A stretch of 64,000 nt of DNA from Deltaproteobacteria bacterium (GCA_024275075.1 JAJRZU010000043.1:6696-70695); one strand, 5' to 3'. Shown: positions 5,733-56,135, counted from the first letter of the stretch. Program-made: numbers and translations. The notes: generated from the letters alone by a model not told the origin.

Positions 5733-6080
5733 GCGTAATTATTTAAAATTGATACCTCGTAGCTCTGCTACGGGGTAGCCCATTTATAAGGCCTCTGCGC
5801 GGTCAGGCAGAGCTATTAATCCGGCAATCAAACAGTGCGCTTTTACGACACGTCATCCCCGCGCACGCCGTCATCCCCGCGAAAGCGGGGATCCATAAAG
5901 CCAATAACGACAACTGGATTCCTGCTTTCGCAGGAATGACAACCGGCTATATTTTTGACGATAAAGCATACTTATTTAGTTGCCGTGTTAATTCGATAAA
6001 GGGCATGTTGCCCAATCCAGTTTAGGGGCTGAAAACCCCTACGCTTCCGTTGGTCGCTACCCCGTAATATCAGCTACTTA
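5733..6080. repeat. Cluster of short palindromic intergenic repeats (REP/MITE-like)
   Basis: Hairpins CGCAGCttGCTGCG and CCCCGCGAAAGCGGGG (two copies of gtcatccccgcg), plus TCCTGCTTTCGCAGGA. Also motif GGCCTCTGCGCGG (found again at 25338 and 48078) and motif GGGCATGTTGCCCAAT at 6001 (found again at 45097 and 48100). Confidence 0.5.
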
Positions 6081-6143
6081 CAAAAGCGCTTTTTTGAAAA
6101 ATTCGTAAAATATGCTATTTGGCAGCACTCCTATAAAGTGTAA

Positions 6144-8783
6144 TTATTCATCTTTTTGTGGTCTTCTGATATTGATTATCTTGGTATTCTTTAAGTGGGT
6201 GGACGTCTCGTATCTTGTTAACAACTCTATCTTGTTGACTATGCTTAACATCCTGTCCGCTTCTTCTGTTATGATCTTCAATGTCTGGTAAATATTTGAA
6301 TCTTCCTTCGTATCGTTCATCAGAAACTCAGAGTATGACATGATCGTCGTCAGCGGCTGCTTCAGTTCATGCGCGGACGAACCCGCCAATTCACTCTCTG
6401 CAATCAGCCGGTCTTTCTCTATCGCAGTCTCTTCGGATTTCTCAAGGCTCTTCGATGCCTTTGCAAGCTTGTCATCGAGATACCGGTTCATTACCGCCGC
6501 GCCAAGCTCACTACCGACCGTATCTAACAGCTTCAAGTCATACCCTGTCTTCTCCCTGGCGCTTGTACCGACAAGGAATATTGCGCCATACATCTTTTCC
6601 CGTACCTTTATAGGCACCAAGATGAACCGATCAATACCGCTGCTTGCGCAAAGGGTCTTTAATTCAAAAGAGATAGCGGCTCTTTTATCAACGTCATCGA
6701 CGGCGACAGAGGCCTTGCTTTTTATAAATTCATTGATTATCTCTTCGGCTCCCCACAACTCGATTATTTTATTGGAGAATCTTTCAAATAGATCATACAC
6801 GGCTCTTAGCTCAATTTTCTTCTTCTCTTCATCGAACAATAATACTATGCCGCCCTTTAGCTCTAAGAATTTGACAATCACTTTTAGCGAGCTGTCCAAA
6901 ACGCCCGTCAAGTCTGTGTCTTCATTAATTATTTCAGGGATAGCGCCCAGCAGTGCAAGCTCCTTGTTTTTCCTTAGCGCCTTGAGCTCCAATAGTTTTG
7001 TACCTGTCACGTCCCTTACTAAGGAGATAAAGCCGTAGACCTCATTTTTCGCGTTGCGCACCGGCTGGGTGAACAGGTCGTAATATTTCTCCTTACCAGA
7101 GCGGGCAATTATCCTCATCTCATGATTGTTCGGGGTCTGTTTTTCGAGCGTTACCGTTGCCGGACAGTTGTTGCAAACCGCACTATGCCCCCTGTATACG
7201 TTATAACACTTGTTCCCGATCAGCTCATTTGGCTGTTTATTAAACAGGTGCGCCTGGTACTTGTTGACCATCGCGACTTCAAAGTCACTGGTGATCAACG
7301 ATATCCCCATTTTCAGGCCGTCAAACACTGACTGAAGCTTGTTTCTCGTCCTGCTAAGCTCGTCGGCCAGTTCCTTCTGGGGAGTGATATCCGTACCTAT
7401 ACACTGGATGGAATCAGGGGCTGCGTCATCTTTGACAATGGTATTCGTTATTGAAAACACCTTTGGCTTCCCCCATTTATCATTTTGTATACAAAGCTCA
7501 TAAGCCGCGCTTGCACCCCTTAAAGCCCTCTTGTAATTCTCCTTGAATATCTCCTGATTCTCCGTACTTAGCAGGTCTAAGAAACTTGTCTGCGATATAT
7601 TATCCGTATTTAGTTCAAGCTCTTGTACAAAGCAGTTGTTATACGATTTTATCTTATAATCATCTCTTGTGACAATAAATATAATATTCGCGGCGTTTTC
7701 AAACAGCTCCTTGTACTTCTTCTCCGCCTCGCGCTTTTTGTCGCTGACCTCTTTTTCAAACTTTATCTGCATGTATTTTTTAAAGACTTTGTTTATCGTA
7801 AAGTTTGAGACAAAGAAGAGCAGAACCAACAGCGCGGCAATGATCACATTGTGCTCAAAATTCTCCGCGTTTACTTCTTGCACCACCTTTGCCGGTGTCG
7901 CGATGGCAAGCTACCAGAAGTTCTGCCAACCGACAATTACAGGGGTGTATGCGACGTAGAAGTCCTCGTTTTTATATCTGTATCCGCCGCCGCCGCTCTC
8001 CTGCGCTATCATGGACAACGATGTCTCGTAAAGCTTCCCGTAACTTTTTGAACGGAACGCATTCTCGCTTTTCATACCGACGAGCTCGGGCGACATGGAG
8101 TGTATGATGATCTCGCCGCGATTGTCAAGCGCCCACAGATAAGTGTTCGGGTGGAATTTCAGACTCTCGATAAAGAGCTGCTCGACCCGGGCAAGCTTTA
8201 TTGTAACAGCAACCGCTCCGGTGAAATCCTCAGGATGGAACGTCTTGCCAGGATCGCTTCTTGAATCATACATGGGCGCTGATACCGTTATGACCCGCTC
8301 ACCCATATCATCTACATGGACTTGCGATGTATACATGTTTTTCTTGTACTTGTTGGTATGGTCGCGGACAGATGTAAAGAAATCGCTTGACGCAAACGAT
8401 TTATTTATTTTTTCCGTGTATACTCTTGAAGGGAGCGCAAAGAGCAAGGTTCCGGATTTATTATAAATCCTTATACTTGATATCTCTTTTTGCTTCAGCC
8501 TGTAAAATGACAACAAATCCCTTATCTTCTCTAAATCAGAACCTTCATGTAAAGACAAGTTATTTGAAAAGATCTCAAGCTCACGCTTCTGGGTATTGAT
8601 AAATTCCTGAATGCCGTTTGATATCTGCTCGACTATCAGTATCTGGCTTTCATTGAACTGGTTGGCGTAAGAGAGTTTTTGAGATGCATAGTTGTGGTAT
8701 GCCACATAGGAGATAGCTATAAAGAACACTATGAAAAAAACATATATTAAGTAGTAAGTCTTCTTTTCTGTTGTCATTGGCAT
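6144..8783 (-). pseudogene. Sensor histidine kinase (Cache-TM-PAS-GAF-HisKA) interrupted by an in-frame TAG at 7911-7913 and lacking a HATPase_c domain
   Basis: ORFs 7911..8783 (TM plus periplasmic Cache-like sensor) and 6144..7886 (TM2, PAS, GAF, HisKA with SAHELKQPLTTI) are in the same frame, separated only by TAG. The read-through is ...GWQNFW*LAIATPAKVVQEV.... The protein ends about 70 aa after the H-box with no ATP-binding domain. Confidence 0.6.
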
Positions 8784-8892
8784 CCTAAGCAGGCTCGCCT
8801 GATTTTTTCTGCGGGTTAATTCCCTTCCCCACGCCGGTTGCTGTGAAGTTTAAGCCCGCCCCCCGTCAGCTTGCAGGGGAGGGGCGGTTCAT

Positions 8893-9600
8893 TTAGCTGT
8901 CAGATTGGATTTCAGTTAACGCTAAAAGGATGATCGTTTTATTATAACCCTTCACTAACCGCCCTTTTAAAAGAAGGTTCCTGACTCTTTTCTCCTTTGT
9001 AAGAATATCAAATCTTACATTTCTAATGTAACTCTCCTCTTCTATATTATTAAACAAGCGCTTATTCGCTTTATTATCGCTTGTCAATGTCAAGGAGTAA
9101 ATGCTCATCTCTAATAGATCCACCCTTAGATAACCGCTTATCACCTCCGCGCTCTGGTTCACCTCTAATATCTTACCGCTTTTCGGGTCGATTATTATTA
9201 CTGCGTCGTTGACTATCTCTAACAACCGGTAATAATTCTCCTCCGCCTCCCAAAGCTCCTGGAAATTCTTGTTGACCATTTTCTTTAACCTGAAGACATC
9301 GAAAGTGAGTAGAGCGATGATGCCAAGCGAGGAGAGCAGAAAGGCCAGTACCGGTATGTAGCCCCTGTGAAACCACGCCTTCCACGAGATATCCTCTTCG
9401 TTCCACCTCTTATACGCTTTTATGTTAGAGAGCGGGATGATATCGTTTGAAAAAAGCGCGAAATCATCTAATATGGTACCGGAAAAACTAAGCAGGGGGG
9501 AGTTGTTTGCTTTGAAAGAACCGCAATGAGCGTCATTTATACTGACAACAGTAATGAAGATAGCTGCCAAAATGAATATTTTTGCCGCTAATTTTACCAT
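8893..9600 (-). CDS. Membrane-anchored PAS-domain protein
   Basis: 235 aa with a signal peptide/TM, a second TM, and then a PAS fold (NDAVIIIDPKSGKILEVNQSAEVISGY). Confidence 0.45.
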   Translation of the reverse strand: MVKLAAKIFILAAIFITVVSINDAHCGSFKANNSPLLSFSGTILDDFALFSNDIIPLSNIKAYKRWNEEDISWKAWFHRGYIPVLAFLLSSLGIIALLTFDVFRLKKMVNKNFQELWEAEENYYRLLEIVNDAVIIIDPKSGKILEVNQSAEVISGYLRVDLLEMSIYSLTLTSDNKANKRLFNNIEEESYIRNVRFDILTKEKRVRNLLLKGRLVKGYNKTIILLALTEIQSDS

Positions 9601-9715
9601 AATCTACCGTATCATAGTTGTTAATAAAACAATATTATAAAATATAGCGCTATTTGTCAATAATATTCAATATTATTTCAGCTGATAACGCGCTTAAACA
9701 AGGGAATTTAACATG

Positions 9716-10454: not shown

Positions 10455-10689
10455 AGATAGCCTTATAAAAGTTTAAGTAAAAGCAGATGATACTACAAAA
10501 ATAAATAAATAACAAAGTTTTTTTCGTAAAAGACCGTCAAGAAGTTTTTTTAAGAGCGGTCTAAGTTAATGCCGCTGATTTTGCGTTAACATTGACTCAA
10601 AACTCTTGACATCACCTTCGTACCGAAAAGGGTAATAATTTGCTTGACATTTTTTTTTAAAGGAATATCATACATTTAAGTATTAGGAG

Positions 10690-10923: not shown

Positions 10924-10932
10924 CTGATAAAG

Positions 10933-11697: not shown

Positions 11698-11707
11698 GGG
11701 GATTTTT

Positions 11708-12637: not shown

Positions 12638-12651
12638 ATGGAGGTAAGGTA

Positions 12652-15792: not shown

Positions 15793-16488
15793 CTATTCTC
15801 TTAGTTTCTTTACTTCGTGGAAGAATTCGGAGATTGTCGTGATGCCCTTTTTGACAAGGATATTCCTTATCGCTCTTAGCTCTAAGAGGACCTCCTCGAT
15901 GTCGTGATCGCTTTGCACCGCCGGTTTCGCTTCGGTCGCCTCTTCCCGGCCCCTGAATATCTCTAAGTTGTCATCTATGTCAGACAAATCGATCTTTATC
16001 GGTTCGTTTGTAGTATCTATTTTCGGTGATATCGATTTATTCCCATAATAATATATCTGGATAGCACGCCATATAGCGCCTTCTTGAGCAATGCCCGCTT
16101 TCACCTTCATACCCGTAGAGAACTGTATCTCATCTATCGCGCCTAAGTCAAGCGGATCCGCCATAGCGATAAGCACGGTATAGGAACCTGCACTGCTCTT
16201 ACTCGCGACAGGCATCAGCATATATTTTTCAGCGACTTCTTTTGTTATTATCTTGATCACGTTATCCTTGATCCTTATAGAACCAAGATCGATACTGGGG
16301 ATACTAAGCTGGTGGCTGAGAAACTGAGCGAGCTTCTCCTCCTTGATGAACCCCATATTGACAAGAATAGAGCCTAACCTGCCGCCCCATTCGCGCTGGT
16401 TCGTCAAGGCGATAGCAAGCTGGTTCTTATTGATCAGCCCCGCATCGAGCAACATCTCGCCTAACTTCACCTTACTCTTGCTTTTCAT
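15793..16488 (-). CDS. Stand-alone T2SSE_N / MshEN-domain protein (putative c-di-GMP receptor)
   Basis: The N-terminus KLGEMLLDAGLINKNQLAIALTNQ matches the 24-residue MshEN c-di-GMP-binding motif RLGxxLLxxGLIxxxQLxxALxxQ. A second copy (GRLGSILVNMGFIKEEKLAQFLSHQ) follows. Confidence 0.5.
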   Translation of the reverse strand: MKSKSKVKLGEMLLDAGLINKNQLAIALTNQREWGGRLGSILVNMGFIKEEKLAQFLSHQLSIPSIDLGSIRIKDNVIKIITKEVAEKYMLMPVASKSSAGSYTVLIAMADPLDLGAIDEIQFSTGMKVKAGIAQEGAIWRAIQIYYYGNKSISPKIDTTNEPIKIDLSDIDDNLEIFRGREEATEAKPAVQSDHDIEEVLLELRAIRNILVKKGITTISEFFHEVKKLRE

Positions 16489-20580: not shown

Positions 20581-20802
20581 GTCGGCAAAAAGCCCGACTT
20601 ACGATATGCGAGGGAAGCGCCCTGAATGTCATTGCGAGGCGCTCACGGTCTTTGTGAGTACTGTGGCAATCTCATCTTTTAATGCATTATACGAAAGACA
20701 AATGATGGGATCGCCGCGTCGTTTGCATAAAGCCGCTACGCATCTAGATGCTCACTCCTCGCGATGCCAGTTGCGCTTAGTTATTGCTGTAACATGTTGT
20801 GC
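20581..20802. repeat. Composite mosaic intergenic repeat (modules D, C and A-like) carrying a nested insertion of about 134 bp
   Basis: GTCGGCAAAAAGCC (20581-20594) and AAAGCCGCTACG...CGCTTAGTTATTGC (20728-20787) are contiguous in the compact copy at 45033-45112. Here they are separated by 134 bp flanked by AAAGCC direct repeats. The insert carries GTCATTGCGAGGCGC, the inverted end of repeat family B. Confidence 0.5.
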
Positions 20803-20955
20803 TAAGAAGCCTTCTATTTTATACTGAAGTTTTCGCCTAAAGGCGGGGGATTTTATATCCCATTAATGAGACATTAGTAAAACCACTGCGCGACCATCAT
20901 TGCTATTTTTTTTGTGACGAAGCAATCTCATAAGTTATCGATACCACTAAAGACG

Positions 20956-21004
20956 AGATTGCCGCGCCGCTTTCTGAAAAGCGCGAAGGCGCCTCGCAAT
21001 GACC
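20956..21004. repeat. Repeat family B copy (AGATTGCCGCGCCGnTTTCTGAAAAGCG...GCGCCTCGCAATGAC)
   Basis: Near-identical 47-49-nt sequence at 56089-56135, and its terminal 15-mer in inverse orientation at 20628-20642. Confidence 0.5.
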
Positions 21005-25178: not shown

Positions 25179-25461
25179 AGCGTCTCCATTTGGTTACTTC
25201 TTGTCTACCATATTTTAGGCCTTAAGCCAAATAGAATATTTTACATATTTTCAAAAATGCTGATGTTGTAACTTAAGACCCTGCACGGCCTTAAAATGTC
25301 CCATCAATGGCGGGGAGTTTTTTAAGGCTGTGCAGAGGCCTTAATAAATAAAATTGGGGTGACATCAGAATATTTGCGAAGTGTGTAGGCAAAAAAAATC
25401 TTGTAAATATGGTCATATTATGTTAGTAAAGTGAGCAAAAAAAGAAGGAAGACAGGTACAG

Positions 25462-27931: not shown

Positions 27932-29122
27932 TTGGAGGGGAGCATGTCTGAAGAAAAGAAGGATGGCCAGGTAGAACAGCTAAAAAAGGACTTTCAAGTT
28001 ATAAAGGATTTTTTGCCAAGGGTTCTTGATTTTGTCAAAGAGCATAAGCGGAAACTCATTATTCTCGGCGCTGTTTTAGTTGCATTAGGGGCGTTATTCA
28101 CGTATAAGATGATTCACTACACCTCAGAGCCTGAGTTTTGCAACCTGTTTTGTCATGAAATGACCCCTGAGGTTGAGTCATGGGAGAATTCATTCCATTC
28201 TCAAAGGGGTGTCGATTGTAAAGAGTGTCATTATGGCGAGGGTATTATGGGGGTTGTTAAAGCTAAGTATTACGCACAGTTTCAGCTTCTGCATCATATC
28301 ACCGGTTCATATTCAAACAACCCGCTTTAAAAGGCGAAGGAGCACGGATTTGAGTTAGCCGCACAGAACATCCACAAGAAGGGTAATAAGGTCTATTACA
28401 TCAAAGCGCATGGATATGCCGCCGAAGTCATCAATTTTAACTGTAAAAGGTGTCACCCGAACGTATTTGACATAGTTAGATCATCAGGTCGGTCGGTCAG
28501 GATGGCTCATAAGCAGCATCTTGAGAAGGGTTATGAATGTACTGACTGTCACATGAATATCGTTCATGGCACAGATCCTGAGGGCTTGAACCTGCCGACG
28601 ATGTGGACGTGTTTCAAGTGCCACGATGATGATAAGGCTCCAAGGGAAGAGTGTGCGTTATGCCACGTCGGGCAAAAGGAGATGTGGGAAGGTGTCGGCG
28701 CGAAAGACATAGATGATGAATCTGCGATGATGCTTGACGAGGTGGAGTGTTCTGACTGCCATTTAGCAGAGGATGACTATATCCCGCCGAGGGATGGCGC
28801 GGTATGCGCAGAATGTCATGATGATGAATCGTATGCGGATACTCTTAAGGAGTGGCAGACGGAAGTCAAGTCAAAAGGCTTCAAGTTAAGAAATATTTTA
28901 GATGAGCTTGCGCAAAGGATGAAGAATATTCAAGAATCTAAGAGAAAAGTGCGTGATTATGATACAGCAAAGGATCTTTATAACAAAGCTACCTACAATG
29001 CCGCGATGATTGAGCATGATGGCAGTAAAGGCGCACATAATTACGATTATGCTGTCTCGATATTAGATGCAAGCCTTAAAATGGCCAGGGACGCAAGGAA
29101 GATATTAACTGCTGGAAAGTAA
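27932..29122 (+). pseudogene. NapC/NirT/NrfH-family membrane-anchored multiheme cytochrome c (8 CxxCH) interrupted by an in-frame TAA at 28328-28330
   Basis: ORFs 27932..28330 and 28502..29122 share a frame. The 171 nt between them is open and encodes another CxxCH (CKRCH). The N-terminus has a TM anchor plus CNLFCHEM...W..SFHS...CKECHY, typical of NapC/NirT. Confidence 0.6.
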
Positions 29123-32152: not shown

Positions 32153-32240
32153 ACGAATTAAGTATCTGAAATGAATTAATAAGGGGAGTTTTTTTAAACT
32201 CCCCTTATTTATAAATCCATATAAATTACAAATAACTCTC

Positions 32241-33200
32241 ATGGTTCTGACTAACAAAAAGCTCTGCCTTTTAATTCTAAATTTATTGATTTTGTCGTGT
32301 TTGTTAATTCTTGCCAATAAATGTCATGCATTAAACGTTGTCTCTACAAAGCTTTTGTTTGAGTTGACGGGCAGTCCAAAAGGAAAATTTGATCAACCTA
32401 CTGCTGTTACATTAGGTAAAGGTGGACGTATCTATGTCATGGATGGCGTCAACAACAGGGTTGTCTATTTTAATAATAATGGTAAATTCTTAAAAGAATT
32501 TGGTGGGGAGGGGTTTGCCGAAGGGCGTTTCTTCTTCCCGCTTGGTATCAAAACGGACGCTGAGGGGAATGTATATGTAGCTGACTCGAAAAACGGCAGG
32601 ATCCAGGTATTTACATATAGTGGTGAATATATAAGAAGTTTCAACTTAGAGAAGATCCAAAAGGGGTTCCAGGCAGACCCTACCGATATCGCCATAAATG
32701 ATAAAATCAATAAGTGCTACATCGTAGATAACGATAATCACAGGATATTAGTTTACAACAAGCAAGGTGAGTACCTGACGAGATTTGGTAGTATGGGGTT
32801 CATAGAGGGTGACTATTTCCGCTACCCGTATAAGGTCGATCTTGACAGCGAAGGCAATGTTTACGTTTTAGAGGTGATTAACACAAGGGTTCAGGTTTTT
32901 GATAAGGATTTGAACTATAAGTACTCGATAGCTGAGTGGGGGCTGGATAAAGGGCAGTTTTTCAGACCCCAGGGGCTTGTGATCGACAATGAGGACAGAG
33001 TCTTCATCGCTGATAACTATACCGGTGTCATACAGGTCTTATCCAAATCAAGTAAGTTTATTGCGGTATTAGGTGATGAAAACGGTGAAATATTAAGGCT
33101 TGATACGCCATGCGGTATGTATATCGATGAAGATAACCGGTTATTTGTTACTCAGATGTTAAAGAACGTTGTATCAGTATATCAACTACAATGGCAATAA
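32241..33200 (+). CDS. NHL-repeat beta-propeller protein (secreted)
   Basis: Signal peptide. Six repeats of the G(R/N)IYV(M/A)D..N.R(V/I)..F type, characteristic of NHL propellers. Confidence 0.7.
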   Translation: MVLTNKKLCLLILNLLILSCLLILANKCHALNVVSTKLLFELTGSPKGKFDQPTAVTLGKGGRIYVMDGVNNRVVYFNNNGKFLKEFGGEGFAEGRFFFPLGIKTDAEGNVYVADSKNGRIQVFTYSGEYIRSFNLEKIQKGFQADPTDIAINDKINKCYIVDNDNHRILVYNKQGEYLTRFGSMGFIEGDYFRYPYKVDLDSEGNVYVLEVINTRVQVFDKDLNYKYSIAEWGLDKGQFFRPQGLVIDNEDRVFIADNYTGVIQVLSKSSKFIAVLGDENGEILRLDTPCGMYIDEDNRLFVTQMLKNVVSVYQLQWQ

Positions 33201-33201
33201 T

Positions 33202-36200
33202 ATGAAAAAGTTTTTTTTTATATTACTCTTTATTTTATTCTTTTGCTCATTTATATGCCTTAAAAGCTCTTTTGCTTACGATAAAGAGAAGGCAAAGATG
33301 TTAAGGGATGAGACAAAAGAGTGTGCTATATGTCATTATGAGTTTATCCCCCAGATATGGGTAGGTAACGGTACCGAACTGGTTGAATATGTTCCCGGCA
33401 GGTTTGTCGGGGACGAACGCGTTTGCTACGGATGTCATAATGGCGGCGTCGCTGATTCCAGGTGGCGTGCATGGTCGATGCAAAGGCACCCGCTAAAAAA
33501 ACCTTCTGACAAAATCAAGATTACAAAGGAATTCCCCTTAAATGACAAGGGTGAGATGTATTGCGGGACATGTCACACCGCTCACGGCGTGGATACGGAC
33601 GCATCCGTTGAGATGGAGCGAACGATATTCCTAAGATACTCAAACAACAATTCTGAGATGTGCATGAGCTGCCACACAAACCAGGCCAAGGGGAAGGAGG
33701 GCGGCAGCCACCCTGTAAATGTATCAACGATCAAATTACCTGAGAAGCTGTCTCATATTGGTGGCTTTACCGGGGATGAACCGAATAAAGTGATCTGTCA
33801 AAGCTGTCACAGCCCGCACGGGACAAGTGAGAAAAAACTGCTGGTCGCCCCGATAAAAAATGCCGAACTATGCGTTCTGTGCCATTATGATAAGGACGCG
33901 AAAACGAGAAAAGAAGCGGCTCGCAAAGGCACGCACCCGGTAAACATCGCGTCAGACACGGTGAAGATATCAGAGAAGTTGAGAAAATTAGGTAGTCGAA
34001 CCGGTACGAAGGGCAGGATAAATTGTCTTTCATGCCACACCGTTCATGATGGCATCAAGGGAAACAAACTTGTTTTAAAAAGAAACTCTGACTCTTCGTT
34101 CTGCCTTGAGTGCCATGAGAAGCAGGAATCGGTATTAGACTCAAAGCATGACCTGCGGGTTACCGCACCGAATGAGCGAAACAAGCTAAAGCAATCACCA
34201 AAGCGCTCCGGGCCTTGCAGCGCCTGCCATATCCCTCATAAAGCCGCCGCGGCGAAGATATGGGCAAAGGAGATCGACACCCGCGGCGAAGCGATAGAGG
34301 AGCTTTGTAAAACCTGTCATGAAAAAGGGGCATGTGCCGAAAAGAAGCAGGTCGGCTTAAATTCGCACCCGGTGGGGATACCGCTTGCCAGGGTAGGCGG
34401 GAGCAGATCGGCTCTGCCGACGTTTGATGAAAATGGCGTAAAAACTATAGTCGATACGAATGTCACCTGCTCCACATGCCATAACGTTCATCAGTGGGAC
34501 CCCCGCAATAAAGTGGTAAAGGGTGACAAGGACATTGACGGTAACTATACAAACAGTTTCTTACGGATAAGGAACCTGTTTGGACTGAGGCTTTGTACTG
34601 ATTGCCATAAGGACCAGGAGTTTATTTTCAGGACTGAACATGACCTGACAGTAACCGCTCCTTTAGAGAAGAACATCCTCGGGCAGACTCCCGCTGAGTC
34701 AGGGCCGTGCGGTGTGTGTCATACCGTCCACAACGCGTTAAGCAAGAACAAGCTCTGGGCGCGACAGTTAGGTGACGCCGATGACGCTGTCTCCATGTTC
34801 TGCTTCAGCTGCCATGAGGAGGGCAGGGTCGCACAAAAGAAGCTTACCGGTGAACATTCCCACCCTGTGATGGCCGACATAAAGCGGGCGGATGGATCGA
34901 CAACGCTCCCTTTGTATATGATAAACAGTAAAAAGGACCCTGAAAAGGGTAAGGTTACCTGTGCAAGCTGCCATAATCTTCACCAATGGGACCCCGAGAT
35001 CAAGGGGCAGGGACCCGGGGAGAATACCGAAGGCGATGTTACAAACAGTTTCTTACGGATAAGGAACGATGCGGATTCCGCTCTTTGTAATGATTGCCAT
35101 GAGGGGAAATATCTGATAGAGGACACCGACCACGACATGGCGGTGACCGCTCCGGACGAGAAGAACCTGCTCGGGCAGACAGTAGCCGAAACAGGGGTAT
35201 GCGGCGCCTGTCACACTATTCATAACGGTGTCTCCTCATTCAAGCTCTGGGTAAAAAAACTCGGCGGCACCGAGCTTGATGATTGTATATCAAGGCTCTG
35301 CTTTAGCTGTCATGACAGGCAGCGTGTCGCACAAAAGAAGCTGGTCGGGGAGAATTCCCACCCAGTGAACGCCGATATAAAGAAAGCGGACGGCTCGACA
35401 GACCTGCCATTATTCAACAAGGAGGGGCGCATCCCGAAAGAAGGCGAGGAGGGCAGGGTCTTTTGTTCCACCTGCCACAACCTGCACCAATGGGACCCGA
35501 CGAAGAAGGAGAAAGGACCAGGGGAGCCTGTGGAGGGTGATATCTCAAACAGCTTCCTGCGCCTGCCGAATGACGCCGGCTCTACGCTGTGCAAAAACTG
35601 CCATGACGGTAAAGACCTCGTTGAGGGGACTGACCATGACATGGCGGTAACGGCGCCCGGGGAGAAAAACATTGTTGGGGAGACCGTGGAGAAGACCGGC
35701 GCGTGCGGCGCGTGTCATATCGTCCATAACGGTGTCTCAACGTATAAACTGTGGGGTAAGGAGTTAGGCGGCGACGAGGATACAGATGGTATTTCGCGGC
35801 TATGCTTCAGCTGTCACGAGGAAGGCAGGGTGGCGCACAAGAAGCAGGTCGGTAAGAATTCCCACCCCGTTGGCGTCGATATCTCGACCGTAGGCGGTGA
35901 GACAGACCTGCCGCTCTTTGATGAAAAAGGTAAAAAAATTGACGGTAATGGCAATGGAAAGGGCAAAGTGTTCTGCTCCACCCGCCACAACCTGCACCAG
36001 TGGGATCCGCTCATAGATGATTATGGCTCCAATGAAAACCTTGAGGGCAACCGCACCAACAGCTTTTTGCGCCTGCCGAATGACGCCGGCTCCACGCTGT
36101 GCAAAAACTGTCACAAGGGTAAGGAATATGTGGAGGGGACAGAGCATGACCTTTCGGTAACCGCGCCGGCCGCAGAGAACGCTATCGGCGAGACAGTCGA

Positions 36201-37203
36201 TGTCGCAGGCGTTTGCAGCGCATGTCACCTTGTCCATAATGGATACGCGTCCGCGTTTTTATGGGCGCGAGTACCGGGCGTGGGGGAGGACAAAGTATCA
36301 AGGTTGTGCACAAGCTGCCACTTAGAGGGACGTGTCGCGCAGAAAAAGACATTAAATGAGAACTCGCATCCGGTTAACGTGCTGATCAGCAGGGCGGACG
36401 GCAGCACCGATTTCCCGCTTTATAATGATATGGGGAAGAAAGACCCTGAAGGCAGGGTGTTTTGCAGCTCTTGTCACAATGTTCATCAATGGAATCCGTC
36501 TAAAGTGGATTATGGGCCAAGGATCAACATTGAAGGAACGCCCCAGACAAGCTTCCTGCGCGCGCCCGGCCTTGACCTGTGTATTAATTGCCACGAAGGG
36601 AAAGATTATATTATCGATACAGAGCATGACCTGAGCGTCACCGCACCCGAAGAGAAGAATCTCCTTGGCAGGACTGTCGCCGAGGACGGCGTTTGCAGCG
36701 CGTGTCACATTATCCATAATGGTGTCAACAAACCGCTCCTGTGGGCGCGTCTTTTCGGGCCGCCGTTCATCAGGGACTGGCAGACGAAATTCGGGGCGGA
36801 AGAGGACCCTGTGGTTCAGGCTTGCACAAGCTGCCATTCTGAAAAAAACATCGCCGAGAAGAAACAGCCGATAGTCGGGCTGCACCCGCGCGGTATTTTT
36901 GTCGGGATAAAACCACTGCCGTTCATCTCCAAGGGAGAGCCGATTCCACCACTATATGATGTGCACGGCGCGAGGATAAAAACAGGGAACTTAGTCTGCC
37001 CTACATGCCACAATCTGCACCAGTGGAGCGGTAGAAAGAAGAAGAAGGGGCCGGGCAAGAACATCGAGGGCAATGCGAACAACAGTTTTTTAAGGAGTGG
37101 AGTCTCTTTCGGCTTATGTCCTGACTGCCACTCATTTGACGGATTGTTCCGGTTCAAGTATTATCATGTACCAAGGATGAGAAACAGAAAATCGAAGAAA
37201 TAG
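33202..37203 (+). CDS. Giant repetitive multiheme cytochrome c (about 31 CxxCH motifs)
   Basis: The ORF frame opens at 33169, but ATG 33202 (MKKFFFILLF signal peptide) follows the NHL stop. The C-terminal two thirds consists of about 5.5 tandem units of roughly 165 aa, each with 4 CxxCH, with 80-90 % nucleotide identity between units. Confidence 0.8.
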   Translation: MKKFFFILLFILFFCSFICLKSSFAYDKEKAKMLRDETKECAICHYEFIPQIWVGNGTELVEYVPGRFVGDERVCYGCHNGGVADSRWRAWSMQRHPLKKPSDKIKITKEFPLNDKGEMYCGTCHTAHGVDTDASVEMERTIFLRYSNNNSEMCMSCHTNQAKGKEGGSHPVNVSTIKLPEKLSHIGGFTGDEPNKVICQSCHSPHGTSEKKLLVAPIKNAELCVLCHYDKDAKTRKEAARKGTHPVNIASDTVKISEKLRKLGSRTGTKGRINCLSCHTVHDGIKGNKLVLKRNSDSSFCLECHEKQESVLDSKHDLRVTAPNERNKLKQSPKRSGPCSACHIPHKAAAAKIWAKEIDTRGEAIEELCKTCHEKGACAEKKQVGLNSHPVGIPLARVGGSRSALPTFDENGVKTIVDTNVTCSTCHNVHQWDPRNKVVKGDKDIDGNYTNSFLRIRNLFGLRLCTDCHKDQEFIFRTEHDLTVTAPLEKNILGQTPAESGPCGVCHTVHNALSKNKLWARQLGDADDAVSMFCFSCHEEGRVAQKKLTGEHSHPVMADIKRADGSTTLPLYMINSKKDPEKGKVTCASCHNLHQWDPEIKGQGPGENTEGDVTNSFLRIRNDADSALCNDCHEGKYLIEDTDHDMAVTAPDEKNLLGQTVAETGVCGACHTIHNGVSSFKLWVKKLGGTELDDCISRLCFSCHDRQRVAQKKLVGENSHPVNADIKKADGSTDLPLFNKEGRIPKEGEEGRVFCSTCHNLHQWDPTKKEKGPGEPVEGDISNSFLRLPNDAGSTLCKNCHDGKDLVEGTDHDMAVTAPGEKNIVGETVEKTGACGACHIVHNGVSTYKLWGKELGGDEDTDGISRLCFSCHEEGRVAHKKQVGKNSHPVGVDISTVGGETDLPLFDEKGKKIDGNGNGKGKVFCSTRHNLHQWDPLIDDYGSNENLEGNRTNSFLRLPNDAGSTLCKNCHKGKEYVEGTEHDLSVTAPAAENAIGETVDVAGVCSACHLVHNGYASAFLWARVPGVGEDKVSRLCTSCHLEGRVAQKKTLNENSHPVNVLISRADGSTDFPLYNDMGKKDPEGRVFCSSCHNVHQWNPSKVDYGPRINIEGTPQTSFLRAPGLDLCINCHEGKDYIIDTEHDLSVTAPEEKNLLGRTVAEDGVCSACHIIHNGVNKPLLWARLFGPPFIRDWQTKFGAEEDPVVQACTSCHSEKNIAEKKQPIVGLHPRGIFVGIKPLPFISKGEPIPPLYDVHGARIKTGNLVCPTCHNLHQWSGRKKKKGPGKNIEGNANNSFLRSGVSFGLCPDCHSFDGLFRFKYYHVPRMRNRKSKK
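34549..37140 (+). repeat. Intragenic tandem repeat array (about 500-nt period) inside the giant cytochrome gene
   Basis: Unit landmarks (N)SFLR(I/L)(R/P)N at about 34549, 35041, 35548, 36058, 36550 and 37085. For example, 35545-35610 versus 36055-36120 are nearly identical. Confidence 0.6.
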
Positions 37204-43249: not shown

Positions 43250-44806
43250 CTACTCTTTTTTAAGCTTCTCTATCTCTTCTTTTATCAAACGTTCCGCGAG
43301 ATCCGGTACTACTTCCCAGACAACGTTCTCGATTATGCTCTTCGTAAGCTCTGCCGCGGTTTTTCGCAACGTCTGCTCGTTTACTATCTCGCCAAGCTTC
43401 TCTTGCACAATAGCATTGATCTTGCTCTCATCTAACTTGAGCTCCTGTATTACCGCCGGTTGCTCTGCCTCTCCTTCAGCTGTGCCTTCAAAAGCGCTTA
43501 CATCCCAGCCATCTTCCTCTTCAACCGGAGCCGCCTCTTCTTCTGCCGCTGCCATGATCTCTTCTTCGGACTCCCATTCCTCTTCTTCCACTTCGACCGG
43601 CGCTTCCACTTCGACCGGCGCTTCCACTTCGACCGGAGCCTCCACTTCAACCGGAGCCTCCTCTTCGACCGGCGCCTCCACTTCAACCGGCGCCTCCACT
43701 TCAACCGGCGCCTCCACTTCAACCGGAGCCTCCTCTTCGACCGGCGCTTCCACTTCGACCGGCGCCTCCACTTCGACCGGCGCTTCCACTTCAACCGGCG
43801 CCTCCTCTTCAACCGGCGCTTCCTCTTCGACCGGAGCTTCCTCTTCGACCGGAGCCTCCACTTCGACCGGAGCCTCCACTTCAACCGGAGCTTCCACTTC
43901 AACCGGCGCCTCCACTTCGACCGGAGCTTCCACTTCAACCGGCGCTTCCACTTCAACCGGAGCTTCCTCTTCGACCGGAGCTTCCTCTTCGACCGGAGCC
44001 TCCTCTTCGACCGGCGCTTCCTCTTCGACCGGAGCCTCCTCTTCAACCGGCGCTTCCACTTCGACCGCCTCGACGACAAACGCTTCAGCGGTTTCTTCTA
44101 ATTCACCCTCTTCGATTATCTCCGCTTCGTGTATCTCTTCATCATCATATTCCCCTTCTAATATTTCCGCGGCTTCAATGATCTCTTCTTCGGGTTCATG
44201 CTGTATCTCCTCAACAGGAGTGATCGACCAGTCACCGTCACTGGACGCGGGAGCCTCCCCTGCTTCAGAATCATCGACAGAAGAGAAGGAGATATCCTCG
44301 TCAATAGAGAGTGGGGCTTCTTCCCCAGCAGGCTCTGTCACGGTAGCAGGTTCTTCAGCCGCGGCGCCTTCATCCATAGCGCCCAATTCCATTTCAATGG
44401 CCTGCTCTTCTATTACCTCAGCTTCAGCGTCTTTAGTGCCTGCCGCGTAGAGCGCATTCACTTTCTCGATGAGTTCATCGCCCCCAAAAGGCTTTATTAT
44501 ATGATCATCAGCTTTGGCATCGGCAAGCTTAGTTTCATCGACTTCTATATATTTTGAGATCATAATGGCAACAGGTATGCCGCTAAGCTCTGGGTCATTT
44601 TTGATCTCTTTACACACATCATAACCGTTTTTGTCGGGCATGTTAAGATCGACAAGGATAGCGTCGGGCATAGTCTCTTTTGCTCTTGATACGCAGTCAG
44701 CACCGTCTGTAACGCATATTATTTCATCATCTATGTTATAATAGATCAGTTCGATAACTTTTCTAATGGTCGCGCTATCATCGGCAATAAGAAGTTTTTT
44801 TGACAT
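43250..44806 (-). CDS. CheY-like receiver domain protein with long acidic EAPVE(V/E) tandem-repeat region
   Basis: N-terminal REC (LLIADDSATIRKV...D54-like DLNMPDKNG...KP). About 170 aa of EAPVEV/EAPVEE repeats, then a short conserved helical C-terminus. Confidence 0.6.
   Translation of the reverse strand: MSKKLLIADDSATIRKVIELIYYNIDDEIICVTDGADCVSRAKETMPDAILVDLNMPDKNGYDVCKEIKNDPELSGIPVAIMISKYIEVDETKLADAKADDHIIKPFGGDELIEKVNALYAAGTKDAEAEVIEEQAIEMELGAMDEGAAAEEPATVTEPAGEEAPLSIDEDISFSSVDDSEAGEAPASSDGDWSITPVEEIQHEPEEEIIEAAEILEGEYDDEEIHEAEIIEEGELEETAEAFVVEAVEVEAPVEEEAPVEEEAPVEEEAPVEEEAPVEEEAPVEVEAPVEVEAPVEVEAPVEVEAPVEVEAPVEVEAPVEEEAPVEEEAPVEEEAPVEVEAPVEVEAPVEVEAPVEEEAPVEVEAPVEVEAPVEVEAPVEEEAPVEVEAPVEVEAPVEVEAPVEVEEEEWESEEEIMAAAEEEAAPVEEEDGWDVSAFEGTAEGEAEQPAVIQELKLDESKINAIVQEKLGEIVNEQTLRKTAAELTKSIIENVVWEVVPDLAERLIKEEIEKLKKE
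43588..44075. repeat. 18-nt coding tandem repeat (about 27 copies; GAAGTGGAAGCGCCGGTC on the coding strand, encoding EVEAPV)
   Basis: Direct reading of the sequence shows two alternating unit variants (…CCACTTC / …CCTCTTC), giving EAPVEV versus EAPVEE. Confidence 0.8.
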
Positions 44807-45032: not shown

Positions 45033-45112
45033 GTCGGCAAAAAGCCGCTACGATAGACGCTCACTCCTTGCGACGACAGTTACGCTTAGTCATTGCCGGG
45101 CATGTTCCCCAA
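45033..45112. repeat. Compact composite intergenic repeat (modules D, C and A)
   Basis: GTCGGCAAAAAGCC, then AAAGCCGCTACGatagACGCTCACTCCTtGCGAcgaCAGTTaCGCTTAGTcATTGC, then GGGCATGTTcCCCAAT. Same module order as 20581-20802 without the insertion. Confidence 0.5.
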
Positions 45113-45266
45113 TGCAATAAAGGGGGGATTCCCCTTCGCCTCCAGTTGTCGGCGCCTCCTTTTTTCAATAACTTACAAGCGGTGTTTTTTTTGAAATAGG
45201 GATATTTTGCTATTTGACTGAAGTCCTATAATAAAGTACCACAAAATATATGGATCTGCTATATTT

Positions 45267-45288
45267 AACATGTGATTAATTACATGTT
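45267..45288. promoter_or_regulatory. Near-perfect 22-bp palindrome AACATGTGATTAATTACATGTT upstream of phoB
   Basis: 20/22 self-complementary. Centred about 75 nt upstream of the phoB ATG in an AT-rich region. Confidence 0.3.
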
Positions 45289-45350
45289 TCTAATGCAATC
45301 CTAACATTAGTATTGTAAACTAATTAAATTAGTGCAAACAAGGTAAAAAT

Positions 45351-46043: not shown

Positions 46044-46153
46044 TTCTTGCATCTATATGCTTCCCTGATTTATGCGAGAGCTTTACGGGTAAATAAATAT
46101 TATCATTTAAGATAGAGTTGTTACTTGACTTATTCCATTAAAACAGGGACATA

Positions 46154-47944: not shown

Positions 47945-48035
47945 ATTCTCATGAGAGCCTAACACCAACCTAACATTTCTTGATTATATTTTATGCATCT
48001 TATGGCAAGGGTCTCTGCGCGGCCTCCTCCTCCAA

Positions 48036-48072
48036 CCCTCTTCTCCCCAAAGCAAGAGGGAGTAAGTTTTTT
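48036..48072 (+). terminator. Putative rho-independent terminator after phoR
   Basis: CCCTCTT-ctccccaaagc-AAGAGGG hairpin followed by agtaagTTTTTT. Embedded in a larger inverted repeat (…CTCTGCGCGGCC…GCTGCGCAGAGGCC). Confidence 0.4.
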
Positions 48073-48137
48073 GTGTGCTGCGCAGAGGCCTGATAAAAAG
48101 GGCATGTTGCCCAATACAAATTAAGGGGGGCATGCGT

Positions 48138-49904: not shown

Positions 49905-49949
49905 CGATTCTCCCATTTATGCGTGAGGTTGACGGATAAATAAATTTGA

Positions 49950-51601: not shown

Positions 51602-51654
51602 ACGTGAAATCACCATTACGCAACATGTAAAACAATAGGTATTGGAGAAGCGAA

Positions 51655-52323: not shown

Positions 52324-52398
52324 AGCATCGGATTACGCCCACATTGTTACATCAGCCCAACTGATAAGTGAAGCGTAGCCCGACACACAGCTAAGTTA

Positions 52399-53565: not shown

Positions 53566-53847
53566 TTTCTCCTATGATAAAATTCTACTCCGAAATAATT
53601 TTGTTAATGATATAAATATTGTACAGCCCCAGAGAAGTTTTCTCATTTATTGTTTATGGCATCATGCCATCTCCTTATAATATTGTTCTATTTATTAGGG
53701 CGTTAGTCTGGTATTTTAATAATTATATCAACAAACAGTAACATTGTCAACACAAATTAAATATTTTATTTACCAATATTTTCGTCAAGTTAGCGCAATT
53801 CTACGCAAATTTTGAGTGTTTTTATAACGCCGTTTACATATATTGAG

Positions 53848-54582
53848 CTAATATATCACATCAATCAGGAAAAGGCCGCGGGCGGGGGCAGTGATATATG
53901 GTTTTTCTATCTTCTTCTGCCTTAAAACAACGTCAGCAAATCCTTCATCATACTTACCATAACCGATCTGCACCAAGAGACCGGTGATATTCCTCACCAT
54001 CTGCTTCAAAAAGCCGCTGCCTGTAAATGTCAGCGTAATATCATGTCCGTTTTTTTGTATATCGATATCATATATAGTCCTTAAAAAGCTCTTTACACTC
54101 GTACCGGTGGAAGTGAAGCCGGTGAAATCATGCTCACCGGTCAAACGCTTTGCCGCCCGCCGCATCTTACTGACATCAAGCGGCTTTCTTACGTACCATG
54201 AATACTTTTTCATAAACGGGTCTTTTGTGTCACGGTTAAATATATGATATTCATACACTTTTTTTTTCGCGGAGATTCGTGCGTGAAACCCATCATCGAC
54301 ACGGCGCATATCCACCACCGCAATATCATCTGGCAGTAGCGAGTTCAACGAATTCCGAAGCCTGACAATATCGATATCCCTTTCTATAAGAAAATTCGCC
54401 GTCATCTTCCTCGCGTGTACCCCTGCGTCAGTTCTCCCTGAAGAGTGTAGCGTCACGCGCTCTTTTGTGACGACCATAATACAGTTTTCTATCTCGCCCT
54501 GAACACTCCTCGCGTTCGACTGCCTCTGCCAGCCGCTATAATCCGTACCGACAAATTCTATTATCATCATTATATTATTCAT
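53848..54582 (-). CDS. truA: tRNA pseudouridine(38-40) synthase TruA
   Basis: IEFVGTDYSGWQRQ...RTDAGVHA motifs. The ORF extends to 54663, but the start is likely the internal Met just after the upstream gene's stop. Confidence 0.75.
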   Translation of the reverse strand: MNNIMMIIEFVGTDYSGWQRQSNARSVQGEIENCIMVVTKERVTLHSSGRTDAGVHARKMTANFLIERDIDIVRLRNSLNSLLPDDIAVVDMRRVDDGFHARISAKKKVYEYHIFNRDTKDPFMKKYSWYVRKPLDVSKMRRAAKRLTGEHDFTGFTSTGTSVKSFLRTIYDIDIQKNGHDITLTFTGSGFLKQMVRNITGLLVQIGYGKYDEGFADVVLRQKKIEKPYITAPARGLFLIDVIY

Positions 54583-54601
54583 TGTACGTGAACTATTACC
54601 G

Positions 54602-54946
54602 CTACTTATCGTTTTGATGAAGAAACTTGGTAACCTGAACAGTCTCTCTTGTGACCATACCACCTTGCATAACCGCGTAAACCTCAGGGAGAATGCTTAA
54701 TATGTTATCATCCGTATCAATAACCTCGATTATTATCGGCAGGTCTCTTGACAGCCTCAAGAACCGGTCTTCGTGAAGCTCGTGCCGGCAGCCAAAACCG
54801 GCGATGCCCTTTGTGACAGTCGCGCCGGATATATTGTGCTTAGCGCAAATATCCAGAATATGCTTGTAAAGCGGTTCATGCTCTACCTGATCCGCCTCGT
54901 CGATATAGACCTTCATCTTAACCATCTCACATTGAATCTTTTTCAT
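54602..54946 (-). CDS. DUF190 (PII-like) protein, CrcB-associated
   Basis: MKKIQCEMVKMKVYIDEAD...GIAGFG pattern of DUF190 (COG1993). Immediately downstream of crcB. Confidence 0.55.
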   Translation of the reverse strand: MKKIQCEMVKMKVYIDEADQVEHEPLYKHILDICAKHNISGATVTKGIAGFGCRHELHEDRFLRLSRDLPIIIEVIDTDDNILSILPEVYAVMQGGMVTRETVQVTKFLHQNDK

Positions 54947-55019
54947 CTCATCCACCTCTAATTGAACTGCCCCGCTGAAAGCCGCGGGGGCTAAGCCCGT
55001 TGCAAAACAAGCGCGTCGG

Positions 55020-55415
55020 TTAGAATATCCTGTCAAGTAGAACACCGAAAGACACACCGAGAAAAACCATAAACAGGCATATCGCAAGGTTTGTCAGGAT
55101 ATTCATAATTGATAAGTAATAGCTTCCCTCTTTTAACAGGTTAAACGTCTCGAAGCTAAAGGTTGAGAACGTCGTAAACGCGCCTAAGAAACCGATAGTC
55201 ACCGCTACGCGCAGGTTCTGCCCGAAAAGTTGCCTGTGCACCGCTAAAAATGAGATGAACCCTAACAGAAAGGACCCGATAGCGTTGACGGTGAGGGTGC
55301 CGTAAGGGAATCCGTCCCCGAAGAGCCTGTAAGCGATGCCTGACACGTAGAACCTGCTCACCGCGCCGAAGAACCCGCCGAAACCTATGTAAAGTATCTC
55401 ACGCAACCGGTTCAT
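55020..55415 (-). CDS. crcB: Fluoride ion channel CrcB/FluC
   Basis: 131 aa, 4 TM helices, with GFFGAVSRF...GTLTVN motifs. Confidence 0.85.
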   Translation of the reverse strand: MNRLREILYIGFGGFFGAVSRFYVSGIAYRLFGDGFPYGTLTVNAIGSFLLGFISFLAVHRQLFGQNLRVAVTIGFLGAFTTFSTFSFETFNLLKEGSYYLSIMNILTNLAICLFMVFLGVSFGVLLDRIF

Positions 55416-56010
55416 CTATATCCTTAATGTCAGAGCTGGTATTAATATTCCTGAGCGACAGCATATCCGGGTCGTACTGTTTCACCTCGTCGATGTTCAT
55501 CGTCTTCGCCCGAAGCTCGCGAAACAGAGGCGATATCTTAAGCTCATCATTAATTATCATACCCTTTATCGTTTTCAGGCACTTCTTGCTGTATATCGAG
55601 TGCAGCGGCTCATACCCCGCCGCCTCGCTTTTCCCTGGCTGCTCCCTGACAATCGTATAGATCCACGCGGTACCGATGCTCTTGATCATATACTTTATCA
55701 GCCGCTCACTCAGAAACGGCATATCGCAGGCCGCGACAAAGCAGCGGTCGTTAGTTGAGTGCAGGAGCGCCGTATATATCCCGCCAAGGGGGCCTTTTCC
55801 CCTGGCAGTATCGCTCACGATAACGGTATCGTACTTAAGGTACGGTATGCAATCGTTCGTGACGATGATTATCTCGTCGAAGAGCTTTTTGAACAGTTTT
55901 ACCTGCACATCGATTATCGGTGCCCCGCCTACCCTGATGAACGCTTTGTTCATGCCCGATAACCGTCTCGCCTTACCGCCCGCCAGAATGACCCCAGTCA
56001 TAATGTCCAT
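55399..56010 (-). CDS. mobA: Molybdenum cofactor guanylyltransferase MobA-like
   Basis: MTGVILAGGKARRLSG..K nucleotide-binding loop. The ORF extends to 56079, but Met 56010 fits. Confidence 0.65.
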   Translation of the reverse strand: MDIMTGVILAGGKARRLSGMNKAFIRVGGAPIIDVQVKLFKKLFDEIIIVTNDCIPYLKYDTVIVSDTARGKGPLGGIYTALLHSTNDRCFVAACDMPFLSERLIKYMIKSIGTAWIYTIVREQPGKSEAAGYEPLHSIYSKKCLKTIKGMIINDELKISPLFRELRAKTMNIDEVKQYDPDMLSLRNINTSSDIKDIDEPVA

Positions 56011-56088
56011 CCCTATGATATAATTCCAAGCGTGCCCATCCTGCCGCTGCCTGTAACCTACCGGTATTGCTAAAAGCAAGATTGCCGC

Positions 56089-56135
56089 GCCGATTTCTGA
56101 AAAGCGAAAGCGCCTCGCAATGACGAAAAAAGAAG
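56089..56135. repeat. Repeat family B copy
   Basis: AGATTGCCGCGCCGaTTTCTGAAAAGCGaaAGCGCCTCGCAATGAC matches 20956-21004 with 4-5 differences. Confidence 0.5.

Follow-up and report, generated by a model that had tools for sequence, protein, structure and literature searches.

The 64,000-nt stretch analysed here (GCA_024275075.1, JAJRZU010000043.1:6696-70695, from a Deltaproteobacteria bacterium; hereafter the window) contains several kinds of short repeat in the spaces between ordinary chromosomal genes. These genes include purE, hup, those for the pyruvate carboxylase subunits, multihaem cytochromes, and valyl-tRNA synthetase, and phoBR-pstSCAB-phoU, and the G+C content of the window is 43-54%. 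A first-pass annotation had described at least five repeat modules (A to E) as one mosaic family of palindromes occupying most of the large intergenic regions. All five modules exist at or near the positions first given for them, and their general class, dispersed intergenic repeats resembling repetitive extragenic palindromes (REP) or miniature inverted-repeat transposable elements (MITE) rather than local duplications, was correctly recognised. However, they are found in about six of the 12 gaps of at least 250 nt and in six of the 17 gaps of at least 120 nt, which is short of most, and they are of at least three mechanistically different kinds rather than one family. The mosaic look would arise because repeat kinds that arrived independently lie side by side or nested.

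Copy counts given here refer to the window. The relatives used for comparison, which show about 76-81% protein identity to the window, are L001, L002, and L035 (JGI metagenomes 3300041080, 3300041085, and 3300041077) and L034 and L036 (both from NCBI assembly GCA_024276115.1). The dispersal of the repeats is evident from these and other sequences: A has two copies in a related genome, at sites unrelated to those in the window, E arms are found in relatives, and hairpins of B type and of a further type, termed F here, are shared with relatives and with hundreds of contigs of no evident relation. None of the repeat families is present in two distant relatives, L300 and L301, and searches for the module sequences in full-text literature returned unrelated primers only.

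A-type elements with terminal repeats and target duplications

Module A had been reported as a 16-nt sequence at 6001, 45097, and 48100. All three sites are present, the second starting at 45098 with one mismatch, and none of 100 shuffles gave three matches. What had been overlooked is that these 16 nt are merely the beginning of an element of ~130 nt. The element starts with a terminal repeat, GGGCATGTTGCCCAAT, followed by an optional G/C hairpin segment, a hairpin (TTTTCAA..CTTAC-AAC-GTAAG..TTGAAAA), a conserved box, GTAAAATATnCTATTTGGCA, and a second terminal repeat. Its 3' end reads AGTyCy, and the reverse complement of this end matches the first 16 nt at 11-12 positions, so that the terminal inverted repeats are imperfect (12/16 in each of two L002 copies and 11/16 in the window copy at 6001). 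The element is non-coding and occurs in a long form of ~130-145 nt and a short form of ~90 nt.

The complete window copy, at 6001-6132 (+), is flanked by 5-bp direct repeats, ATAAA, at 5996-6000 and 6133-6137 (whole region, 5996-6137). A copy of the long form lies at 45098-45227 (+), with 89% identity to L002 across 83 nt. Fragments lie at two more places: a 3' fragment with the conserved box and the hairpin at 25217-25275 (-), 92-93% identical to the L002 copies and cut off exactly at the start of the E-type element E1, and a 31-nt 5' fragment at 48100-48130 (+), which ends at AAGGGGGG immediately before the start codon of pstS. Together with two copies in 14 kb of L002, these four copies or fragments all lie beside different genes, and the loci in the window and in L002 are unrelated. 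The identity of A between the window and L002 is 89-95%, compared with 72-78% for adjacent coding DNA.

All three complete copies of A have consistent boundaries and perfect 5-bp target duplications (ATAAA in the window, ATAAT and CACAT in L002), and these duplications indicate transposition. Thus, what had been called module A is the end of a non-autonomous transposon, a MITE, with the hallmarks of such elements. A transposase encoded elsewhere, whose existence we infer, would move A and create the 5-bp target duplications. Searches with parts of the element gave nothing beyond the relatives: the conserved box, as GTAAAATATNCTATTTGGC, gave chance singletons only in a single genome scan and a single metagenome scan, with this lineage absent from the matches; the 13 matches of the 16-mer in viral contigs are at chance level and have no element context; and the element had no match in plasmids.

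Correia elements and other bacterial MITEs are ~100-150 nt long, with imperfect terminal inverted repeats and a short A/T-rich TA target duplication; Correia elements have a long and a short form, distinguished by an internal segment, are inserted in leaders and between genes, and may carry an outward promoter. The A element is similar in size, in its imperfect terminal repeats, in the A/T-rich duplication of complete copies, in having long and short forms, and in its insertion in leaders and intergenic regions. It differs from Correia elements in that the duplication is 5 bp rather than TA, the terminal repeat GGGCATGTTGCCCAAT is different, and no parent insertion sequence was found in the window or in the genome and metagenome scans. 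An outward promoter, the remaining point of likeness, is a possibility for A as well. A weak sigma-70-like site, TTGCCA-16-TATTTT, pointing from the conserved box toward the 16-nt A end, was called in the L002 copies only, its counterparts in the window being degenerate. All five A copies have a gene start ahead in the promoter-like direction, which is weak evidence because three of the five are in divergent regions.

Other identities were considered by inspection of motifs and spacing. A sigma-54 or Bacteroidetes-type promoter in the conserved box was rejected on this basis, and so were integron attC sites, dif/Xer sites, and CRISPR arrays.

Beside the complete copy of A, a sensor kinase gene is seemingly broken into three open reading frames (ORFs) at 6144-9600 (-), which encode a PAS domain (8893-9600), a dCache domain (7911-8783), and a PAS-GAF-HisKA protein (6144-7886). 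The last of these, of 580 aa, has no HATPase domain and ends 7 nt from the target duplication at 6133-6137. A search for its homologues at E<=1e-60, meant to reveal an empty site for the MITE at 6001, returned only the ORF itself.

GTC-headed hairpins of F and B type

The strongest palindromes of the region, at 5851-5941, had been overlooked. This stretch consists of CGTCATCCCCGCGAAAGCGGGGATCC, a half-site upstream, and TGTCATTCCTGCGAAAGCAGGAATCCAG on the opposite strand, and the fold of 5850-5945 has an energy of -19.4 kcal/mol (z -3.95). The half-site, CGTCATCCCCGCGCACGC, at 5851-5868 (+) has the head and the 5' stem only and lies directly upstream of a full hairpin, CGTCATCCCCGCGAAAGCGGGGATCCAT, at 5869-5896 (+), which forms an inverted pair with TGTCATTCCTGCGAAAGCAGGAATCCAG at 5914-5941 (-). 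The same half-plus-full arrangement is found in the relative L034 at 16072-16124, and a fixed-loop version of the F pattern matches at least 120 viral contigs.

These F-type hairpins resemble targets of small GIY-YIG proteins (Ssn, cd10448). Ssn proteins bind and cut hairpins of the NTS and the Ssn-related motif (SRM) only as single-stranded DNA; three bases 5' of the palindrome matter for cutting and a C 3' of it for binding, while the hairpin loop is dispensable, replaceable, or extendable (PMC11893778). NTS is defined as CGTCATTCCCGCGMAVGCGGGAATCYRG and SRM by the degenerate pattern HGTCWYN(0-2)YYVSBRHN(0-5)WNVSBRGN(0-2)RNCYNB, and the organisms named are Neisseria, Wolbachia, and Rhizorhabdus (PMC11893778). 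The F-type hairpin at 5869-5896 matches the published SRM pattern and is its sole match in the window (shuffle mean 0.24). Its partner at 5914-5941 misses this pattern by one position and corresponds to the Neisseria NTS consensus with three mismatches, two of which form a compensatory pair.

A similar architecture was seen beside Ssn-like genes themselves in viral contigs. Where an Ssn-like gene (Pfam GIY-YIG) has sequence on both sides, a GTC-stem-C hairpin is present on each side in 8/9 loci, and many of 62 further Ssn-like loci have such hairpins beside the gene. The stem sequences of these flanking hairpins vary widely, and some of the hairpins (at L303, L318, L331, L336, and L339) are two-tier hairpins of 36-63 nt. 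The identification of F as Ssn-type hairpins is secure, and there are good grounds for supposing that they are linked to an Ssn nuclease. In one viral contig (L346, 582-1114), eight GTC-headed hairpins form a regular array with a period of ~146 nt upstream of an Ssn-like gene, and two hairpin sequence types alternate in this array.

B-type hairpins are longer and two-tiered. Read on the opposite strand, the B module is TGTC-ATTGC-GAGG-[inner hairpin]-CGYG-GCAAT-CT. The copy at 20956 and its inverted counterpart at 20628-20672 had been placed correctly, whereas the copy assigned to 56089 starts at 56079. With their flanks, the three hairpins extend over 20627-20673 (+; TGTCATTGCGAGG-CGCTCACGGTCTTTGTGAGTACT-GTGGCAATCTC, head first), 20955-21004 (-; G-AGATTGCCGCGCCGCTTTCTGAAAAGCGCGAAGGCGCCTCGCAATGAC on the plus strand), and 56078-56125 (-; AGATTGCCGCGCCGATTTCTGAAAAGCGAAAGCGCCTCGCAATGAC on the plus strand), the last lying between a mobA-like gene and a gene for a 149-aa protein. 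The first two are inverted with respect to each other and bracket 324 nt. The second is 90.6% identical to the 56-kb copy over 53 nt, and weaker similarity extends 25 nt to its left (20931-20955). A possible decayed B-type hairpin, ATCATTGC-TATTTTTTTTGTGACGAA-GCAATCTC, read at low confidence, is located at 20896-20929 (+). A pair of B-type hairpins is also present in the relative L036.

Despite the mismatch with the published SRM pattern, the flanking determinants of the Ssn motif are conserved in B. All five full hairpins of the window (5869, 5917, 20628, 20957, and 56080) have GTC 5' of the palindrome and C 3' of it, the heads of both F and B read GTC(A/G)T, and the GTC head and C tail are found in all three window copies of B and in the L036 copy. 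When B-type sequences were collected without regard to their flanks, 96 new contexts had G in 85, T in 69, and C in 70 at positions -3 to -1, and C in 72 at +1; the exceptions are evident coding matches. The inner stem of B also covaries, with 27 double-change cells against 9.0 +/- 2.1 after shuffling (0/500 shuffles reach the observed number) and 3-8 cells in slid-pairing controls.

The B pattern, AGATTGCC-N15-35-CCTCGCAATGAC, has matches in at least 120 viral contigs of IMG/VR, and the matches listed comprise 77 distinct sequences. The B type is far more widespread than recorded in the literature searched. The contigs that bear it belong to real phages, with genes for major head protein, portal, and terminase, and related phages carry B-type hairpins in different spacers of the structural operon. 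No protein family other than ordinary phage head proteins recurrently adjoins B hairpins in the viral contigs. B-type hairpins are also present on plasmids of proteobacteria, and short forms of B are found on replicons of Methylosinus trichosporium OB3b, where the hairpin is located between convergent genes, Methylocystis rosea, and a Halomonas strain. In three related phages (L141, 2186-2270; L155, 6658-6729; L133, 8112-8184), the same spacer 3' of the major head gene holds a B-type hairpin in two and two copies of a GTAG-headed hairpin, ACGTAGGGGCGTTGCTTTAGCTGCGCCCGAG, in the third, and hairpin families are seemingly interchangeable at this position.

The abundance of B- and F-type hairpins in phage and prophage contigs would also suit attachment or target sites of a site-specific recombinase or an IS110-type transposase, and the dRS3 repeat of Neisseria is cited as a phage recombinase target (PMC11893778). 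We regard this alternative to nuclease sites as unlikely: the phage B hairpins are inside structural operons, in variable spacers, and not at genome ends or beside integrases, no recombinase is near any window copy, and use as a target does not explain the rise of hundreds of copies.

With regard to the Ssn-type reading, F and B share one frame, which is also that of NTS/SRM: a (T/C)GTC head, a stem whose first bases are AT, either a loop or an inner hairpin, the other half of the stem, and a C. Both kinds would most likely be sites recognised by an Ssn-type nuclease whose gene lies elsewhere in the genome, would propagate and be maintained as the repeats of that system, and would act on single-stranded DNA (incoming, replicating, or recombining) rather than as RNA signals. 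NTS/SRM and the present hairpins are alike in several respects: the F sequences fit the SRM pattern or, but for the compensatory pair, the NTS consensus; B has the same head, AT-starting stem, and C after the stem, which are the determinants for cutting and binding; both known and present hairpins are arranged in inverted pairs and in clusters near ordinary genes; and extended loops are tolerated (PMC11893778), as two-tier hairpins beside Ssn-like genes were seen in this study. In contrast to NTS/SRM, the outer stem of B is 5 bp long (ATTGC), its internal loop is fixed (GAGG/CGTG), and its inner hairpin is variable, the B hairpin being 26-53 nt long in all. In addition, no ssn gene was seen near any copy here, the host is of an uncultured lineage and not Neisseria, Wolbachia, or Rhizorhabdus, and B abounds in the structural modules of phages, a point that the part of the published account used here does not mention (PMC11893778).

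B is graded as probable Ssn-type by its architecture, below F. A more far-reaching idea, which we put forward tentatively as a possibility somewhat on the doubtful side, is that (T)GTC-ATTGCGAGG-[variable covarying inner hairpin]-CGTGGCAAT-C(C/T) constitutes a distinct and extremely widespread class of single-stranded DNA hairpin outside the published SRM. If so, the enzymes that act on it could form a separate clade of Ssn-like nucleases or be of another kind. The spread of the hairpin among phages might then reflect hairpin-copying machinery acting on phage DNA during infection or, alternatively, phages that use or tolerate hairpins in conflict with single-strand nucleases of the host.

E-type shells, the pstS leader, and modules C and D

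The E module had been described as inverted pairs at three places. Two pairs are present, at 25275-25343 and 48010-48090 (the module itself at 25328 and 48078, each with a partner arm), while only a lone arm is found at ~5785-5804. This arm (reverse complement ...GACCGCGCAGAGGCCTTATAA) is accompanied by a short hairpin, CTCTGC/GCAGAG, within 5785-5815 (-). E1, at 25275-25343 (+), has the arms AAGACCCTGCACGGCCTT and AAGGCTGTGCAGAGGCCTT and a 22-nt core. E2, at 48010-48090 (+), has the arms GGTCTCTGCGCGGCC and GCTGCGCAGAGGCC, which form a 14-bp stem, and an inner hairpin, CCCTCTT..AAGAGGG. The arms are ~17-20 nt long, with the approximate consensus TTATAAGrCCyCTGCrCrGCC, the other side ending in GGCTGyGCAGAGGCCTTATAA. 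In L034 and L036, E-like arms enclose GTC-headed hairpins, whereas those in the window enclose other small hairpins. The E arms had no matches in viral contigs, and E therefore appears to be a lineage-specific inverted-repeat shell around a variable hairpin; in the relatives it would carry B- or F-like hairpins as cargo. Upstream of pycB, three genomes carry three hairpin types: the window a B-type hairpin, L001 an F-type hairpin, and L036 an E-like composite.

The arrangement recalls the Neisseria intergenic mosaic elements (NIMEs), which are based on dRS3. Both show mosaic intergenic arrays with short inverted repeats bracketing variable units, and the F-type hairpin at 5914-5941 is nearly a dRS3/NTS sequence. 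However, the roles are in part reversed, as E arms bracket SRM-like hairpins here, whereas dRS3 brackets RS units in NIMEs; the exact dRS3, ATTCCC-N8-GGGAAT (PMC11893778), is absent, the closest sequence being ATTCCTGCGAAAGCAGGAAT at 5918-5937; and the organism is unrelated.

Presence and absence at an orthologous site are seen in the leader of pstS. Direct repeats, CTAACA-N5-CTAACA at ~47955-47975 upstream of pstS and CTAATG..CTAACA at ~45285-45310 upstream of phoB, are conserved between the window and L034 (11795-11815 and 9240-9265, respectively) and are probably Pho boxes. The spacer between phoR and pstS can be aligned with its L034 counterpart as far as the -10 region, the Pho box included. 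Beyond this point, the window has ~115 extra nt up to the pstS start codon: first E2, which thus lies in the 5' leader and downstream of the Pho box, then an 8-nt spacer, and last the A fragment. The aligned leader of L034 has neither E2 nor the A fragment. The AAGGGGGG of the A fragment replaces the GGGAGG ribosome-binding site of the relative. Side effects on genes are thus real but secondary: the pstS leader has gained ~115 nt including a new ribosome-binding site.

That E2 and the A fragment supply the ribosome-binding site of pstS raises the question of whether the elements are selected cis-acting RNA structures, such as terminators, mRNA stabilisers, leaders, or small RNAs, conserved by function and not by mobility. 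The covariation of the B inner stems and the weak promoter-like site of the L002 copies of A, oriented toward the next gene in all five copies, could be read in the same way, and roles as terminators or sources of small RNAs had been suggested in the first-pass annotation. Several observations speak against such roles. Rfam gave no match at gathering score or at E<=0.5 in the window and none in 12 B-type loci; T-tracts are almost lacking; terminator-like calls are no more numerous than in shuffles and none falls in A, B, E, or F, with one weak call inside C (20760-20775); and promoter-like calls are also at shuffle level, the site in A being degenerate in the window copies. B-type hairpins show no strand bias relative to the nearest gene (16 on the same strand and 24 on the opposite strand), and the target duplications of A point to transposition. 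We therefore consider conservation as RNA structures improbable, and RNA-level function is presumably absent.

Modules C and D are of a different nature. The two copies of C, at 20725-20787 (+) and 45037-45096, are 82.5% identical over 63 nt. The palindromic character ascribed to the modules holds for E2 (z -3.18) but not for C, which is not palindromic (folding z-scores +0.4 and +1.6). D is a small hairpin, GTCGGCAAAAAGCCCGAC, at 20581-20600 (+) and again at 45033, where it is fused to the second copy of C (D plus C, 45033-45096, +). Both D sites are present as reported, but D alone is at chance level, with at least two matches in 13/100 shuffles, and is credible only because it abuts C. The order D-C-A had been given as common to 20.6 and 45.0 kb. 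D-C is indeed common to both, while after C at 20.79 kb a hand alignment shows just 9/15 resemblance to A. At 20.6 kb, D is ~130 nt from C. The intervening segment holds a B-type hairpin and has AAAGCC at either end, a pattern that would fit insertion into a D-C unit.

Within C, TCCTCGCGATGCC agrees with the B-type end CCTCGCAATGAC at 10/12 positions; next comes AGTTATTGC, which corresponds to the B-type head GTCATTGC, and C finishes with AGTyATTGC; the second copy ends in a B-type head, AGTCATTGC. Since it has a B-type end and a B-type head, C may be read as the decayed junction of two inverted B-type hairpins. C and D are probably decayed remnants of repeat elements such as A, B, E, and F.

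Several repeat kinds in the large gaps

Taken together, we think it rather likely that the large gaps were colonised independently by Ssn-type hairpins (F and B), the A MITE, and the E shell, with C and D as remnants. The repeat structure, the covariation of the B stem, the target duplications of A, the spread across genomes, and the presence or absence at an orthologous site are direct observations on which this account is built.

Several observations weigh against it. A Pfam search of all ORFs found no transposase, integrase, RAYT, or GIY-YIG/Ssn-like gene in the 64-kb window, and hmmsearch found no Ssn-like ORF in ~115 kb of the relatives or beside any B-type copy in ~2 Mb of B-type loci. 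The link between B and Ssn is for that reason one of architecture. Conversely, at none of the Ssn-like loci did a B-type (ATTGC) hairpin flank the Ssn gene. All B-type copies, with an outer stem of 5 bp, fail the published SRM pattern because their interior is longer, and single B copies, at first described as palindromic like the other modules, fold weakly (z about -1). For A, no autonomous element with its terminal repeat was found in the window or in the genome and metagenome scans, and the copy at 45098 has ATAAT on its right flank and module C on its left, and thus no matching target duplication, as it abuts C.

REP palindromes carry the head tetranucleotide GTAG, and in the REP/RAYT systems of E. 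coli or Pseudomonas such repeats are mobilised by a REP-associated tyrosine transposase (RAYT). A single modular family of this kind, comprising all modules, would account for the intergenic, mosaic arrangement and for the inverted pairs and clusters (5869-5941, and 20628 with 20956 bracketing 324 nt). Here, as in REP and its mosaics (BIME), short extragenic palindromes with a conserved non-palindromic head occur singly, as inverted pairs, and in mosaics, and GTAG-headed hairpins are found in one relative of the B-type phages at the spacer where the others carry B. However, the head of the hairpins described here is GTC rather than GTAG, no Y1_Tnp domain and hence no RAYT was seen among the window ORFs (64 kb only), and the architectures differ, since the terminal repeats and target duplications of A are not found in REPs, and C is no hairpin. 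One REP/RAYT-type family is accordingly improbable here, although the NTS-ssn-NTS arrangement has itself been likened to REP/RAYT in the published account (PMC11893778).

Local duplication within this stretch of chromosome is very improbable as a general explanation: it would fit C and D, which occur twice each and, among searchable DNA, only in the window (C has no copies in the relatives or in viral contigs), the outcome that the first-pass annotation had named as favouring local duplication, but it is refuted for A, B, E, and F, which recur at unrelated loci in other genomes.

Independent colonisation would explain the unusual length of several intergenic regions of this genome by inserted repeats, and it bears on annotation, as ORFs or small RNAs called across these repeats are suspect; in the case of pstS, a leader has been rebuilt by insertions. 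It would also extend the Ssn hairpin repeats to an uncultured lineage and add a longer, two-tier hairpin type which the published search pattern misses and which is very common in phage contigs. If B-type hairpins are nuclease sites, they would widen the known range of nucleases that act sequence-specifically on single-stranded DNA, enzymes of interest as tools, and the question is raised of how such repeats enter phage genomes.

Some further repeats and gene structures of the window were recorded. Small hairpin repeats of other types are present at ~5.7 kb (ACCTCGCAGCTTGCTGCG and ACCTCGTAGCTCTGCTACGGGG, 5716-5770) and at ~58.2 kb (CCCTACCCTGAGGGAGG and CCCACCTACCCTGGTGGGAGGGGG, 58190-58290). 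A 31-nt hairpin with A/T ends, ATTTATGCGnGAGnTTnACGGnTAAATAAAT, not among the modules first described, occurs in 87% identical copies at 46067-46099 and 49914-49945, where it follows the phoB and pstC stop codons without a gap. At 32178-32209, two cytochrome-cluster genes are separated by a near-perfect palindrome of 32 nt, AATAAGGGGAGTTTTTTTAAACTCCCCTTATT, which may act as a terminator in both directions. The gene for a multihaem cytochrome of 1344 aa (33169-37203) contains four to six internal repeat units of ~500 nt that are 60-84% identical. A NapC/NirT-type cytochrome gene (27932-29122) is seemingly interrupted, with a TAA at 28328 and the cytochrome ORF resuming at 28502, and a pseudogene, a sequencing error, and a truly split gene are all possible. 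Finally, an 18-nt tandem repeat, CTTCCACTTCGACCGGCG, with 26.8 copies at 90% identity (43585-44067), lies inside the ORF at 43250-44806 (-), where it encodes the hexapeptide-repeat region of a 518-aa protein whose sole Pfam domain is an N-terminal response-regulator receiver.

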